The notes beneath the pieces were generated by a model. That model was not told the DNA's origin and searched no databases. It was given only the letters and a program-made list of their open reading frames with translations. A stretch of 32,000 nt of DNA, taken from positions 22,966-54,965 of the forward strand of contig JANWZS010000004.1 of the NCBI GenBank assembly GCA_025054855.1. Reading direction: 5' to 3'. Origin of the DNA: Candidatus Nitrosocaldus sp. Its GTDB lineage: Archaea > Thermoproteota > Nitrososphaeria > Nitrososphaerales > Nitrosocaldaceae. Below are positions 19,297 to 24,374 of this stretch, in pieces. Each line of letters begins with the position of its first letter. The stretch's first letter is position 1. The position numbers and the translations under genes are program-made.

Positions 19297-19671
19297 TCAC
19301 CTCATCCCCCCTATCATGCCAGGGGCTTTGGGCATGCTCCTGTACTCCTTCACTATATGCACACCTGGCTCAGCGGTCACAACTACATACTCCCTGTTTG
19401 CATCATCCCTTGGCGAGAGCGATACCTTCTCCCCAGGCTTTATCCTTGGTATGAAGTCCTTGTACGTACCATAATCTACCACGACATTGGTTATATCGTT
19501 CCTCCCAGTGTTGGTGAGGATCACCCTGTATATATCCATGACATCTATCTTGTCCTTGAACGCATCGACATCCAGCGCATAATCCTGGTTGGAGTAGGGC
19601 ATGAGCATAAGGAATGCAGTAAGCATGGCAGCACCCATGGCACCTGCACCTGCGATGAGGTAGATCAGCAC
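19297..19671 (-). CDS. Hypothetical N-terminally membrane-anchored protein with a ~95-aa beta-rich (Ig/CARDB-like) domain; neighbour of the AMO locus
   Basis: GTG start. The TM helix is LIYLIAGAGAMGAAMLTAFLMLM. It is followed by RVILTNTGRNDITNVVVDYG...IKPGEKVSLSP, a pattern reminiscent of CARDB-type beta-sandwiches. The overlapping plus-strand ORFs look like shadows. Confidence 0.55.
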   Translation of the reverse strand: MLIYLIAGAGAMGAAMLTAFLMLMPYSNQDYALDVDAFKDKIDVMDIYRVILTNTGRNDITNVVVDYGTYKDFIPRIKPGEKVSLSPRDDANREYVVVTAEPGVHIVKEYRSMPKAPGMIGGMR

Positions 19672-19785
19672 AACATACTATCCACAAGGTTAGATTTAAC
19701 ATTTATCATTCCCTAGCATACATGCTACCATATTACACCTGATCCGACCATTATAGTTATATTTAAGTTAGTTTTAGTATATGTG

Positions 19786-19983
19786 ATGATGAAGAACTAC
19801 AGCATGCTTGCGGTACTGGCCATACTGGCCCTTGCAGCAGTAGCAGCAGTCATGCCAAGTGCGTATGCACAGACCTGGGGTAGACCCGACTCTATGATCA
19901 TTGCAGGACTACCGCTGATAGTCGGCCTAGGCACTGGTATAGTGTACTTCATAGTGATATCTGCAAGAAGGTCCAAGAAGTAG
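19786..19983 (+). CDS. Hypothetical small secreted/single-pass membrane protein (65 aa); neighbour of the AMO locus
   Basis: It has a Sec-type signal peptide (MMKNYSMLAVLAILALAAVAAVMPSAYA-Q), a 7-aa linker, a Gly-rich TM (MIIAGLPLIVGLGTGIVYFIVI) and a basic tail (SARRSKK). A TATA-like TATATTTAAG lies 18 nt upstream and an oligo-T run lies downstream. Confidence 0.5.
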   Translation: MMKNYSMLAVLAILALAAVAAVMPSAYAQTWGRPDSMIIAGLPLIVGLGTGIVYFIVISARRSKK

Positions 19984-20130: not shown

Positions 20131-20784
20131 TTAGTCCCACTTGCTCCAGGCAGCGGCCCACCTGTACGTCCATGTGTTCAGCTTTGCACCCAAGGCAGCC
20201 ATCGGTACACTTATAACCGCACTTATACCTGCTGCCAACGCCACTGGACTGTTGTAGAACTTGCCCACCTGAGGCTCTATCGGCGTTAGGTATGCTGGGA
20301 GCGTTGGTCTAGGATACTTGAATGCCATCTCTAGTGGATCATGTACAGTTAGCAGGTTTATCATGTTGAAGAGTGGCATGGACATGCCTACCAGGGAGCC
20401 TCCTATCAGTATAGCTGCATGCTTGTTCCTCCTTGTTGCCCAGTATGATAGGTCGAGGAGCATGGCACTCGGTATCCAGACTGGGACGATCATGAAGTCG
20501 TATGGATAGCCTAAGCCTCCTATCCAGGCCCACTTTGCAACCCAGGTGTATATGGTCATTATTGTAGCGTAGTACGTTGCTGTACCAGGCACTCCTGTGA
20601 ATAGCATGTAGTAGATGGCACCAACCACGAGCATGGTTGCCTGGCTAAGGTTGAAGATCACGAAGGAGGTCCACATCCAGTCGGAGTAGAATATGTAGTC
20701 TCCAGCGTTGATGGTCAGCAGCGTCGAGTTCACCGCAACTACCACTATGAACAGGTAGTGTATTGTGCGTCTAATCCAGACCAT
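20131..20784 (-). CDS. amoA: Ammonia monooxygenase subunit A, archaeal type
   Basis: 217 aa. MVWIRRTIHYLFIVVVAVNSTLLTINAGDYIFYSDW...MLFTGVPGTATYYATIMTIYTWVAK...YPYDFMIVPVWIPSAMLLDLSYWATRRNKH...MAFKYPRPTLP...PIEPQVGKFYNSPVA is near-identical in pattern to thaumarchaeal AmoA sequences I know. Confidence 0.97.
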   Translation of the reverse strand: MVWIRRTIHYLFIVVVAVNSTLLTINAGDYIFYSDWMWTSFVIFNLSQATMLVVGAIYYMLFTGVPGTATYYATIMTIYTWVAKWAWIGGLGYPYDFMIVPVWIPSAMLLDLSYWATRRNKHAAILIGGSLVGMSMPLFNMINLLTVHDPLEMAFKYPRPTLPAYLTPIEPQVGKFYNSPVALAAGISAVISVPMAALGAKLNTWTYRWAAAWSKWD

Positions 20785-20880: not shown

Positions 20881-21141
20881 CTATGGGATGGCTGGCTTCT
20901 CCATGGCAACTTTCCAGATGAAGATGAATCCAAAGGCAATGATCACGGTCAGCACGGTCAGCGCATACATCCCAGAGCTGAATGGGTATGCCCATGAATA
21001 GTATGTGAACCCTACCCAGACACCAAATGCTGTTGCTGCCCACGCCATTATCGCTCCGATTATGTACAGACCCTTCATGTGCTCAGTCCTCTTGCCAATC
21101 ATCCTCTCTATCTCGTCCTTGGGCGCCTCCTTCTTCGACAT
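20881..21141 (-). CDS. amoX: AmoX (small 2-TM protein encoded between amoA and amoC in ammonia-oxidising archaea)
   Basis: Its position between amoC and amoA matches the conserved AOA arrangement. It has two TM helices (LYIIGAIMAWAATAFGVWVGF and MYALTVLTVIIAFGFIFIW). I prefer the ATG at 21141 (MSKKEAPKDE...), because CTTTAATAA lies 23 nt upstream. The track ORF extends to 21165. Confidence 0.8.
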   Translation of the reverse strand: MSKKEAPKDEIERMIGKRTEHMKGLYIIGAIMAWAATAFGVWVGFTYYSWAYPFSSGMYALTVLTVIIAFGFIFIWKVAMEKPAIP

Positions 21142-21164
21142 TAAAGAATAATGAAACGAATGCA

Positions 21165-21173
21165 TTATTAAAG
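21165..21173 (-). promoter_or_regulatory. TATA-box-like element for amoX
   Basis: The minus strand reads CTTTAATAA, about 23 nt upstream of the ATG at 21141. Confidence 0.45.
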
Positions 21174-21277: not shown

Positions 21278-21841
21278 TTATGGTATGCTCCTGCTGTACA
21301 GCTTGCCCTCCAGAGCGAGCTTGTACATCTCTGCAACGTATGGGTTGCTTGGCGGCGTCTCCATCCCGAGCTCTACCATCCTCACGTACAGCCTGACCAC
21401 GTAGGCTAGTGCACCTATGAATGCCACGACGACACCCATGTTGAATGACCAGTGGTTGGGTACTGCGAATACCTCCTCCACGAACCAGAAGTGCCACATC
21501 TCGTTTATACCTATGGTGAACATGGTACCTAGGTAGCCTATGATGGTCATCTTTATACCAGTGTTGACGGTGTTGTTTGGACCCCTCATCAGTGGCACCC
21601 TTCTGTCATATATCATTATTGCACCCCAGCCTAGTGGTAGCGCAACGAAGTGGGAGTAGAGCCACCAGTGCGCTGGTGTGAATGCACTGTCCCTTATACT
21701 GGTCTGGTGCAGTGAGCCGTCGACGAAGTTGTCAACCTCAACGCTCGCTGCGACTGAGCCCATCACTATGACCATTATCAGTATCTTCTTCAGCCTCTGC
21801 ATCTCAACCTCCTTTGGTAGTAGTGCTGGCATCTGAGCCAT
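21278..21841 (-). CDS. amoC: Ammonia monooxygenase subunit C, archaeal type
   Basis: 187 aa. WWLYSHFVALPLGWG...GINEMWHFWFVEEVFAVPNHWSF keeps the His-x12-His spacing and the preceding acidic/amide residue of the AmoC/PmoC metal site. The overall pattern is that of thaumarchaeal AmoC. Confidence 0.95.
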   Translation of the reverse strand: MAQMPALLPKEVEMQRLKKILIMVIVMGSVAASVEVDNFVDGSLHQTSIRDSAFTPAHWWLYSHFVALPLGWGAIMIYDRRVPLMRGPNNTVNTGIKMTIIGYLGTMFTIGINEMWHFWFVEEVFAVPNHWSFNMGVVVAFIGALAYVVRLYVRMVELGMETPPSNPYVAEMYKLALEGKLYSRSIP

Positions 21842-22146: not shown

Positions 22147-22776
22147 ATGAAGGTAACGCATGTAGCATTGCTGACAGCAGTGGCAGTGGTGCTGGTACTC
22201 GGCTCATTTGCGCCATTGATGAAGGATGCGTTTGCACACGGTGTCCAGGCACAGCTGCAGAGCAGGTTCGTAAAGATAGAGGATGAGACGTTCTCAACGT
22301 TCAGGGTAATAACCAAGCAGGAGTATGCAAACAGGACAGGTCTAACGCTGGAGCAAGTCGATGCGATGGGCTGTGACCCAAGGAGGGGAGACATACTGAT
22401 AGTAACTGGTAGACTTGTAAGCCAGGTCAACAAGGAGCTGAGGGCATGGATATCCCTCTTCAACGAGTCATCTAACGCTGGCAATAGGTGGGAGTTCATA
22501 TCAAGGGAGCCACCAGGTAACGTCTTCGATATACCTCCAGGCGGGGAGGTCCCATACAGGTTATGTGTCTCTGCACTTGAGCCTGGTACATACCATACCC
22601 ATACCCAGCTGAACGTGGCTACTGTTGGTCCAGGTCTCGGTCCAGGGGCAACAGTGGTGGTAGAGGGCGAGCCAACCATGAAGCCTATGTCAGTAGGCAA
22701 CATAGCATACCAGACCATACTGATAGCAATAGGCCTAGCGATATCATTCGCAACAAGACCATGGCAGGTCATATAG
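22147..22776 (+). CDS. amoB: Ammonia monooxygenase subunit B, archaeal type (single cupredoxin domain plus C-terminal TM)
   Basis: The signal peptide ends AFA|HGVQAQLQSRF, which exposes an N-terminal His as in the PmoB/AmoB CuB site. The H-x-H motif is in EPGTYHTHTQLNVATVGPGLGPG. The C-terminal TM is IAYQTILIAIGLAISFA. Confidence 0.95.
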   Translation: MKVTHVALLTAVAVVLVLGSFAPLMKDAFAHGVQAQLQSRFVKIEDETFSTFRVITKQEYANRTGLTLEQVDAMGCDPRRGDILIVTGRLVSQVNKELRAWISLFNESSNAGNRWEFISREPPGNVFDIPPGGEVPYRLCVSALEPGTYHTHTQLNVATVGPGLGPGATVVVEGEPTMKPMSVGNIAYQTILIAIGLAISFATRPWQVI

Positions 22777-22810: not shown

Positions 22811-22960
22811 GCCTATCTGATCTAACTGCACATACTATGTGGGGAAGGGATTGAGATAATGTATGTATGCTGGTACAGTCAGATCATGATGTAGAGCATG
22901 CAATCATATACTCTCTTCTACTAATCTGTAATCATATAAAAAAGGAGATGTTAGCTGGGG

Positions 22961-23230
22961 TTACCTTCTCCTCTCCTCTGGCAGTAGACCTATACCCTCC
23001 CTCTCGTAGTACCTCTCCAACTCCTGCACCCATGTCTCCCTTGCCGTACCGCCTATACCCTTGTGTCTTATCCAGTACGCTATAACGCTCAGTAGGAATA
23101 TGCCGAACATCATTGTGCCGAATATGTAGATCATCACATCGTAGAAGAGTGGGTCATATGCTGGGCCTATCTGCAGCACTATGCTCTTTATACCCATAGC
23201 CAGCGTTGCAATATCCATTGGTATAATCAT
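22961..23230 (-). CDS. Hypothetical small single-pass membrane protein (85-89 aa) next to amoB; candidate AMO accessory subunit
   Basis: It has one strong TM (VMIYIFGTMMFGIFLLSVIAYWI) and a charged C-terminal tail (RHKGIGGTARETWVQELERYYEREGIGLLPEERRR). Possible ATG starts are 23230 and 23218, and TATA-like elements lie upstream of both. A T6 run follows the stop. Confidence 0.55.
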   Translation of the reverse strand: MIIPMDIATLAMGIKSIVLQIGPAYDPLFYDVMIYIFGTMMFGIFLLSVIAYWIRHKGIGGTARETWVQELERYYEREGIGLLPEERRR

Positions 23231-23461
23231 CGAACACCATGAATATATACATTTCCGTTTGGCCTTATAAAAAATTTAGCCGCTTTACTATACTTACGCA
23301 TCATTAGTCCATCTCACTACTGTATCACACCAATTCCATAAATACCATAGATAATGCAATCATATTATACACTATGCAGATGCGTATATACGTACAGGAA
23401 TAATGATAGGTAGAGCTATGTATGGAAGAGATCAAACAAAAAAGGAAGTGTGTAGGTTCTG

Positions 23462-23833
23462 CTACGCACTCTTCTGTATCTTTGGCTTCCTCAGTGCCAT
23501 TGCGAAGAATGCTGCGGAGATGCCTCCAAATATCGCTCCAAGGGCAGCAACATATATGCCGAGTTCACCGAACGTCTGTGCTACCATGGATGTACCAGAA
23601 CCATACGCACCCTCCTGCTGTGCTGTTGTCAGCCTCTTCTTTGCCAGTATGGAGTGCTGTGTGCATGCGAACTCTGGTATGCCAAGTTGCTTGCACTCCT
23701 CCAACTGCTCTGGCGTAGCAGTTATATCACCACCAACCTCACCATACAGCTGCGCCATCGCTACGGAACCGCTCCCTACCCACATTGCAATTACTCCAGC
23801 CACCACCACCGCTAGAAGAGCAAACTTATTCAT
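23462..23833 (-). CDS. Hypothetical secreted, C-terminally membrane-anchored protein (123 aa) near amoB; candidate AMO accessory subunit
   Basis: It has a signal peptide (MNKFALLAVVVAGVIAMWVGSGSVAMA-Q). The ~65-aa ectodomain contains two Cys (EECKQLGIPEFACTQ). The protein ends with a Gly-rich TM (LGIYVAALGAIFGGISAAFFAMAL) and a basic tail (RKPKIQKSA). A TATA-like ATTATATAC lies 23 nt upstream, and CCTTTTTTGTTTG follows the stop. Confidence 0.6.
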   Translation of the reverse strand: MNKFALLAVVVAGVIAMWVGSGSVAMAQLYGEVGGDITATPEQLEECKQLGIPEFACTQHSILAKKRLTTAQQEGAYGSGTSMVAQTFGELGIYVAALGAIFGGISAAFFAMALRKPKIQKSA

Positions 23834-23930
23834 GTAACCCTTTATGCACTGATGATGTATATAATCTTTCCCTCTTTCTCGTTAAATTATACGGGCAAAG
23901 ACTTTAATTTATCACCTGCAGAGTCTATGC

Positions 23931-24374
23931 ATGGCTAGGATACATGCCCATAGGAAGGGCAAGTCACACTCAACGAGACCCATGCAGATCAATACTCCAT
24001 GGGTCAGCATGAGCAAGGAGGAGATAATCAACCTGATAGTGAGCATGGCGAAGGATGGACTCAAGCCCAGCGAGATAGGTCTGAGGCTTAGAGATGAGTA
24101 CGGTATACCTCTGGTCAAGAGGATCATAGGCAAGTCCATCACAGAGGTTCTGGAGGAGCATGGCATAAAGGCTCTGCCAGAGGACCTTAGCAACATGCTT
24201 GAGAAGGCCATCAGGCTTCAGAAGCACCTCAGTGTGCATAGGAGCGATAGCAACAACGTACGCTCCCTGGAGCTGATAGAGGCCAAGATACACAGGCTTG
24301 CAAAGTACTACAAGAGGGAGGGCAAGATACCCCAGGAGTGGAGGTACAAGGCTGTGATAGCAAGCCTTGAGTGA
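23931..24374 (+). CDS. rps15: 30S ribosomal protein S15 (uS15; S13e type)
   Basis: MARIHAHRKGKSHSTRP...LRLRDEYGIP...HLSVHRSDSNNVRSLELIEAKIHRLAKYY is the canonical archaeal uS15 pattern. Confidence 0.95.
   Translation: MARIHAHRKGKSHSTRPMQINTPWVSMSKEEIINLIVSMAKDGLKPSEIGLRLRDEYGIPLVKRIIGKSITEVLEEHGIKALPEDLSNMLEKAIRLQKHLSVHRSDSNNVRSLELIEAKIHRLAKYYKREGKIPQEWRYKAVIASLE

Follow-up and report, generated by a model that had tools for sequence, protein, structure and literature searches.

A conserved single-pass membrane protein encoded in the amo cluster of a thermophilic Candidatus Nitrosocaldus is most probably AmoZ, a known accessory subunit of the archaeal ammonia monooxygenase

AmoZ and its described orthologues

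Hodgskiss et al. (2023) added two subunits to the archaeal ammonia monooxygenase (AMO), namely, AmoY (NVIE_004540, NCAV_0488) and AmoZ (NVIE_004550 in N. viennensis, NCAV_0486 in N. cavascurensis), the latter being the sixth subunit of the archaeal enzyme (PMC10030591). According to these authors, AmoZ consists of a predicted signal peptide, which was removed before modelling, followed by a disordered stretch, a disulfide-linked pair of helices, an extended loop and a single transmembrane (TM) helix; in N. viennensis, the predicted disulfide connects Cys49 and Cys59, and this bond is found only in Nitrososphaera and Nitrosocaldaceae (PMC10030591). A zinc ribbon has been described for the AmoZ of Nitrosocosmicus, and genomes with more than one amoZ, such as that of N. 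gargensis with three copies, have already been tabulated (Table S16 of PMC10030591). The soluble hairpin of AmoZ has been proposed to support the lone cupredoxin domain of AmoB, and the TM helix is placed differently by the two published models (PMC10030591). In a cryo-EM preprint of 2026, AmoZ and AmoY are called AmoG and AmoF, respectively; the AmoG of N. maritimus has a single TM helix, which is reported as built in the structure, forms a clamp-like heterodimer with AmoF between the protomers, and compensates for a helix that is missing from archaeal AmoB (preprint 10.64898/2026.08.31.748207).

The published gene data are detailed enough to be matched to individual ORFs. NVIE_004550 is a protein of 123 aa and 12.837 kDa, encoded next to the ribosomal protein gene rps15p (NVIE_004560; 149 aa, 16.534 kDa), and NCAV_0486 is a protein of 130 aa and 13.543 kDa that is followed by NCAV_0488 of 85 aa (PMC10030591). 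The remaining amo products of N. cavascurensis are AmoB (209 aa, 22.817 kDa), AmoC (187 aa, 21.207 kDa), AmoX (86 aa, 9.729 kDa) and AmoA (217 aa, 24.502 kDa) (PMC10030591).

In the window analysed here, that is, the whole stretch of 32,000 nucleotides from Candidatus Nitrosocaldus sp., the initial annotation drew attention to a 123-aa ORF on the minus strand, and this ORF, amoZ hereinafter, is indeed present (Table 1). We conclude, with a probability of about 95%, that this ORF of a thermophilic Candidatus Nitrosocaldus encodes, as its product P0001, the AmoZ (AmoG) subunit, a small accessory component of the copper AMO of archaea; no observation made here speaks against this assignment. A comparison with AmoY and AmoZ had been recommended, and it identifies the protein as AmoZ itself, by orthology to the two AmoZ proteins that have been studied experimentally and by gene context; of the two alternatives left by the initial annotation, the permanently anchored, AMO-associated ectoprotein is thus the correct one. 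The subunit and the genus are already known, the gene cluster has already been published for N. cavascurensis, and the identification adds nothing new to biology. Nevertheless, correct annotation of AmoZ in a thermophilic, early-branching lineage is useful, because nitrification in Earth's most abundant ammonia oxidisers begins with the enzyme to which this subunit belongs.

The name rests on the papers and on matching ORF lengths, masses and gene order, rather than on a named database record. Over its full length, P0001 is 91% identical to an ORF product of 130 aa and 13.543 kDa, and the ORFs around the latter reproduce, in the same order, the lengths and masses published for NCAV_0489-0492. 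A second ORF product, of 123 aa and 12.837 kDa, shows 44% identity to P0001 (E 3e-22), with both cysteines aligned, and adjoins an S15 protein of 149 aa and 16.534 kDa, which are the values of NVIE_004550 and NVIE_004560. Because lengths, masses and neighbours are equal to the published values, we take these two ORFs to be NCAV_0486 and NVIE_004550, respectively. Another protein of 130 aa (P0006) was considered as NCAV_0486 and rejected on account of its mass (13.501 vs 13.543 kDa).

The AmoZ of N. cavascurensis has the signal peptide, the cysteine pair, the GAYGSGT linker, the TM helix and the tail as in P0001, from which it differs by a few substitutions and an indel of 2-3 residues in the disordered N-terminal stretch. 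The two also differ in the assigned start: that of NCAV_0486 is published about 6-7 codons upstream (130 aa), whereas 123 aa is the only possible reading in the window, where the sole in-frame start codon is ATG and the 16 codons upstream of it are open and include no ATG, GTG or TTG. The 130-aa form (L098:1655-2047) begins with MYNKSYMNK, and the corresponding codon of the window (23834-23854) is ATA, so that in either organism the shorter form, starting with MNK, is probably correct; the MNK start is common to nearly all orthologues.

The AmoZ of N. viennensis has the same length as P0001, 123 aa, retains GSGT and IFGGxxAAFF, and is encoded between rps15 and amoY, but differs in the linker, in the residues immediately before the TM helix, where TFGE is missing, and in the tail (RGRGATPPS). 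The AmoG of N. maritimus belongs to the same family and is likewise a single-pass protein paired with AmoY (preprint 10.64898/2026.08.31.748207; PDB 9XJ2/9XGS); unlike P0001, this distant orthologue does not have the cysteine pair. Short forms of ~100 aa do not contain the cysteine-bearing segment, and the profile matches in the putative Nitrosopumilaceae are weaker, with E about 1e-14.

Gene neighbourhood and phyletic distribution

The genes of the window are arranged in the order rps15, amoZ-amoY, amoB, amoC-amoX-amoA, so that amoZ lies upstream of amoY and is clustered with amoABCX as in Nitrosocaldaceae (Table 1). In N. cavascurensis, the same order, amoZ-amoY-amoB-amoC-amoX-amoA, is found, with two differences in annotation: NCAV_0488 is annotated from the second ATG as an AmoY of 85 aa vs the 89-aa ORF of the window, and AmoX has 86 aa vs 94 aa for the window ORF. 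The order rps15-amoZ-amoY is also that of NVIE_004560, NVIE_004550 and NVIE_004540 in N. viennensis. Among the 80 related loci that we fetched, most keep the arrangement S15(-), AmoZ(+), AmoY(+), and AmoY (58-99% identity) follows AmoZ in most of them. The complete contiguous series Z-Y-B-C-X-A is present in the Nitrosocaldus loci, in several unclassified MAGs of Nitrososphaerales/Nitrosopumilales and in one Nitrosomirales MAG. Unlike in the cluster of the window, the remaining amo genes of Nitrososphaera are dispersed, and this genus has additional copies of amoZ; the linkage between amoZ and amoY is kept even where the remaining amo genes are dispersed.

Table 1. Features of amoZ, its product and the neighbouring genes in the window
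Feature	Position	Strand	Description	Basis
amoZ coding sequence (P0001)	23462..23833	(-)	123 aa + stop	ORF list, translation, orthology
Signal peptide	23753..23833	(-)	residues 1-27, ending AMA/Q; predicted cleavage	hydropathy, conservation
Two-helix ectodomain	23615..23713	(-)	residues 41-73	AF2 helices 41-50, 59-73
Cys47	23693-23695	(-)		
Cys57	23663-23665	(-)		
G-S-G-T motif	23591..23602	(-)	residues 78-81, linker before TM helix	100% of 79 sequences
TM helix	23492..23557	(-)	residues 93-114, conserved face LxAIFGGxxAAFF	hydropathy, conservation, AF2
Basic, putatively cytoplasmic tail	23465..23491	(-)	residues 115-123, RKPKIQKSA	sequence; topology from positive-inside rule
amoY	22961..23230	(-)	89 aa (85 aa from second ATG)	directly downstream of amoZ
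Ribosomal protein S15 gene (rps15)	23931..24374	(+)	divergent from amoZ	Pfam PF08069, PF00312
amoB	22147..22776	(+)	209 aa	Pfam PF04744; length equal to NCAV_0489
amoC	21278..21841	(-)	187 aa	Pfam PF04896; length equal to NCAV_0490
amoX	20881..21165	(-)	94-aa ORF	position between amoC and amoA, conserved across loci
amoA	20131..20784	(-)	217 aa	Pfam PF12942, E 3e-107
66-aa ORF	19783-19983	(+)	65 aa from ATG at 19786; signal peptide ending AYA/Q, Gly-rich TM, tail RRSKK	
124-aa ORF	19297-19671	(-)	N-terminal TM helix, probable beta-rich domain	

The phyletic distribution of AmoZ was assessed in 301 genomes of the class, with a profile built from 79 AmoZ sequences and with PF12942 for amoA. Matches to the AmoZ profile were detected in four families (f1, f2, f3 and f5), in 8/9, 192/192, 43/43 and 4/4 genomes, respectively, and in 0/52 genomes of the 11 other families of the class. 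The corresponding counts for PF12942 are 9/9, 186/192, 41/43 and 4/4, again with no match in the other 11 families, and hence in this genome sample AmoZ is confined to the amoA-bearing families. In the family that we take as Nitrosopumilaceae, each of the 192 genomes encodes at least one copy, typically at a distance of 3-4 kb from amoA.

With respect to copy number, between two and six AmoZ-like genes per genome were observed in Nitrososphaera-like archaea and Nitrosomirales, with the additional ones located away from amoY and rps15. Such multiple copies are seen at the loci L009/L057, L053/L048, L054/L037, L060/L044 and L071/L056/L045, among others, and in the genomes G105, G156 and G166.

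A scan of one collection that includes one genome per species identified AmoZ relatives in 206 genomes, with identity ranging from 95% down to ~35% and the invariant motifs retained; the genome to which the window belongs encodes a single copy. The relatives in 206 genomes and the single copy in its own genome place this feature far beyond chance. Conservation in other ammonia-oxidising archaea, the lack of which had been named among the grounds for abandoning the initial annotation, is thus observed. Among the relatives whose source is named, all are labelled either 'hypothetical protein' or 'zinc ribbon domain-containing protein', and the database proteins nearest to P0001 carry the name Candidatus Nitrosocaldus sp. 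The family is recognised by neither Pfam nor NCBIfam, scans of which returned nothing meaningful for P0001, and cluster look-ups yielded no informative names. A sequence search of the PDB with P0001 and a 21-sequence profile gave only chance matches (E about 1) in a set that contained no archaeal AMO.

Architecture of AmoZ and the nature of its C-terminal helix

The initial annotation described the protein as a secreted one, with a signal peptide that ends in AMA/Q, and the data agree with this description: hydropathy near the N-terminus is highest at residues 10-18 (1.9-2.2 on the Kyte-Doolittle scale, window 19), the hydrophobic segment ends with V-A-M-A27/Q28, and the residues around the predicted cleavage site are conserved among the 79 orthologues (A25, 80%; A27, 94%; Q28, 99%; Y30, 99%). 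The claim of a cysteine pair holds except for the spacing: P0001 contains exactly two cysteines, C47 and C57, which are 10 residues apart, not 12. Their counterparts in the alignment with the N. viennensis protein are Cys49 and Cys59, which have the same 10-residue spacing. Both cysteines are kept in 67/79 aligned orthologues, and the pair is absent from the short forms of ~100 aa and from forms of 136-142 aa. The C-terminal part also reads as originally described, with QTFGELG leading into a hydrophobic, Gly/Ala-rich helix (residues 93-114) and then RKPKIQKSA. The hydropathy of this helix peaks at residues 100-106, and basic residues follow it in all orthologues.

In the 79-sequence profile, conservation of AmoZ is among the highest in the TM helix, where L98, F102, G103, A108, F109 and F110 are retained in 99-100% of the orthologues. 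Invariant in the 79 sequences are G78-S79-G80-T81, G103, F109 and F110, and conservation of 94-99% was observed for A27, Q28, Y30, L44, L63, A64, L98, F102, A107 and A108. An AlphaFold2 (AF2) model built from the 79-row alignment, with a mean pLDDT of 65.6, that is, moderate confidence, contains helices at residues 3-20 (the signal peptide), 41-50 and 59-73 (a hairpin that includes both cysteines) and 83-114 (TM; pLDDT up to 90), and a disordered segment at residues 22-36. Taken together, the AF2 helices, the hydropathy and the conservation fit the published description of AmoZ. In some orthologues, those of 136-142 aa, the chain continues beyond the TM helix into a zinc ribbon or a charged helix on the cytoplasmic side.

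A side feature of the ectodomain in the thermophilic clade is the sequence GIPEF between the two cysteines, in which IPEF occupies residues 52-55 (window 23669-23680). Its likeness to VVPEF, the sorting motif present in this genome, is coincidental, and no TM helix comes after it.

The sorting signals of archaeosortase substrates likewise consist of a short motif, a TM helix and basic residues at the very C-terminus, and the initial annotation accordingly saw in TFGE a degenerate PEFG-CTERM motif; if so, processing would cut off the TM helix and leave the ectodomain anchored to a lipid. PEFG-CTERM substrates (TIGR04296) are, like AmoZ, exported and endowed with a C-terminal hydrophobic helix and basic residues, and archaeosortase homologues are encoded in the genome. 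The proposed search for an archaeosortase gene was productive, since the genome to which the window belongs encodes two proteins of the exosortase/archaeosortase family (C41:69212-70030 and C6:333-872; PF09721, 100.9 bits; TIGR04178, 55.5 and 48.9 bits). In addition, at least seven proteins of this genome have a C-terminus in which V(V/I)PEF[G/P] is followed by a TM helix and then by a tail rich in Arg; the sites include C33:7484-7564 and three tails within 4 kb on another contig (C11:132127-135773). A PEF-CTERM sorting system thus appears to exist in this Nitrosocaldus genome, which is a necessary condition for such processing but is not specific to AmoZ. The presence of the system lends meaning to the negative outcome of the suggested PEFG-CTERM search, in which TIGR04296 failed to match P0001 directly at E<=1 and the nine places matched at E<=1 in a six-frame scan of the genome included none on the contig of the window (C37), while one of the genuine tails scored above the cut-off. 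Furthermore, in all seven tails of this genome the helix is immediately preceded by V(V/I)PEF, and at this position AmoZ has no PEF(G) motif but QTFGELG. Among the orthologues, TFGE or TFGD is confined to the thermophilic clade, and elsewhere this segment is replaced by unrelated sequences, such as TSINST, GNIDST and TESGQM. The helix itself, with F109, F110 and G103 invariant, is conserved beyond the need of an anchor that is to be discarded, which fits specific packing of the helix better than a disposable anchor; the cytoplasmic helix or zinc ribbon that comes after it in the 136-142-aa orthologues argues in the same direction. Finally, the TM helix of an orthologue is described as part of the cryo-EM structure, a helix retained in the complex, in contrast to PEFG-CTERM substrates (preprint 10.64898/2026.08.31.748207). 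Processing of AmoZ by an archaeosortase therefore seems very improbable, and the suggestion of a lipid-anchored protein of this kind in the amo cluster is removed.

Expression, complex membership and proposed role

Peptides and complexes have been reported for the orthologues of P0001. For NCAV_0486, three peptides were detected, which cover 28.5% of the protein and have a summed intensity close to that of AmoB, and its migration in BN-PAGE correlates with that of AmoABC; the AmoZ of N. viennensis forms cross-links to AMO subunits (PMC10030591). At the level of RNA, two sediment metatranscriptomic libraries (X18 and X20) contain contigs that are 85-99% alike to amoZ and amoY (window 22900-23950), with a word depth of up to about 1.4e5 in the assembler output, and in one of the contigs the 3' end of amoZ is joined to the 5' end of amoY; no contig in these libraries matches the spacer at 23296-23439. 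Such contigs suggest that transcripts of related ammonia-oxidising archaea, thermophilic or from sediment, are abundant; they come from relatives, not from the organism studied here, and DNA may be present in an RNA library, hence they are used here as supporting evidence only.

These observations bear on two further explanations of the locus. The small size of the protein and the failure of any Pfam or NCBIfam family model to match it might raise the suspicion that the ORF is spurious and untranslated, but this notion is already refuted by the pattern of conservation, in which the motifs stay invariant among relatives from 206 genomes while identity falls from 95% to about 35%, and is further at odds with the high-intensity peptides of the 91%-identical orthologue (PMC10030591) and with the metatranscriptomic contigs, which span the coding part and leave the spacer uncovered; we regard its probability as negligible. 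One could also imagine a conserved exported membrane protein whose gene merely adjoins the amo cluster and whose function has nothing to do with AMO, given that membership in the complex is known from orthologues rather than from this organism. The family, however, has the same distribution as amoA, and its linkage to amoY is conserved despite the scattering of the amo genes. Co-migration with AmoABC in N. cavascurensis and cross-links in N. viennensis (PMC10030591), along with the AmoZ orthologue described in the cryo-EM structure (10.64898/2026.08.31.748207), likewise speak for the enzyme, such that a function outside AMO appears highly unlikely.

If P0001 is AmoZ, as we believe, it would be exported by the Sec pathway, with the signal peptide probably cut after Ala27, to give a mature single-pass protein of ~96 aa with the N-out/C-in orientation predicted by the positive-inside rule. 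A putative Cys47-Cys57 disulfide would pin the helix-loop-helix in the pseudo-periplasm, where, judging from the literature on orthologues and AlphaFold-multimer models, the hairpin would be in contact with the lone AmoB cupredoxin domain. The conserved TM helix would be packed permanently in the membrane part of the enzyme, with the basic tail in the cytoplasm, and would replace a helix that is present in bacterial AmoB but absent from archaeal AmoB; together, AmoZ and AmoY might form a clamp between neighbouring protomers and so stabilise the trimer. Compared with the part of AmoB that it would replace, AmoZ is a separate polypeptide without detectable sequence relation, and its soluble part is a helix hairpin, not a beta-barrel.

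Conceivably, AmoZ is more than a scaffold, because GSGT and Gln28-x-Tyr30 are conserved about as strongly as the TM helix: the former is present in 100% and the latter, at the mature N-terminus, in 99% of the 79 sequences, and neither is explained in the AmoZ literature cited here. The GSGT linker and Gln28-x-Tyr30 might then mark a functional contact near the copper site of AmoB or the substrate path, a proposal that we consider rather unlikely. Gln28 could be converted to pyroglutamate after cleavage, and the thermophile-specific disulfide and the TFGE segment could be adaptations of such a putative contact. The invariance of GSGT and Q-x-Y is a small lead, not a discovery.

Two other small ORFs are located near amoA (Table 1). 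The 66-aa ORF was said, in its 65-aa reading, to have the same layout as AmoZ, and this is correct, but the two show no sequence similarity. It is conserved adjacent to amoA in the Nitrosocaldus loci, is present also in the genome that we take as N. cavascurensis, and has relatives of 36-49% identity in several unclassified MAGs of Nitrososphaerales/Nitrosopumilales and in a Nitrosomirales MAG (L008, L011, L012, L015 and L057); those relatives that bear a name are all called 'hypothetical protein'. Among the rows of the proteomics table that are listed, no counterpart appears under NCAV_0493-0495 (PMC10030591). This ORF could encode a further small AMO-associated membrane protein. The 124-aa ORF has no Pfam or NCBIfam match; it adjoins the 66-aa ORF in the Nitrosocaldus loci, and its relatives at L008, L057 and L080 show 38-53% identity.
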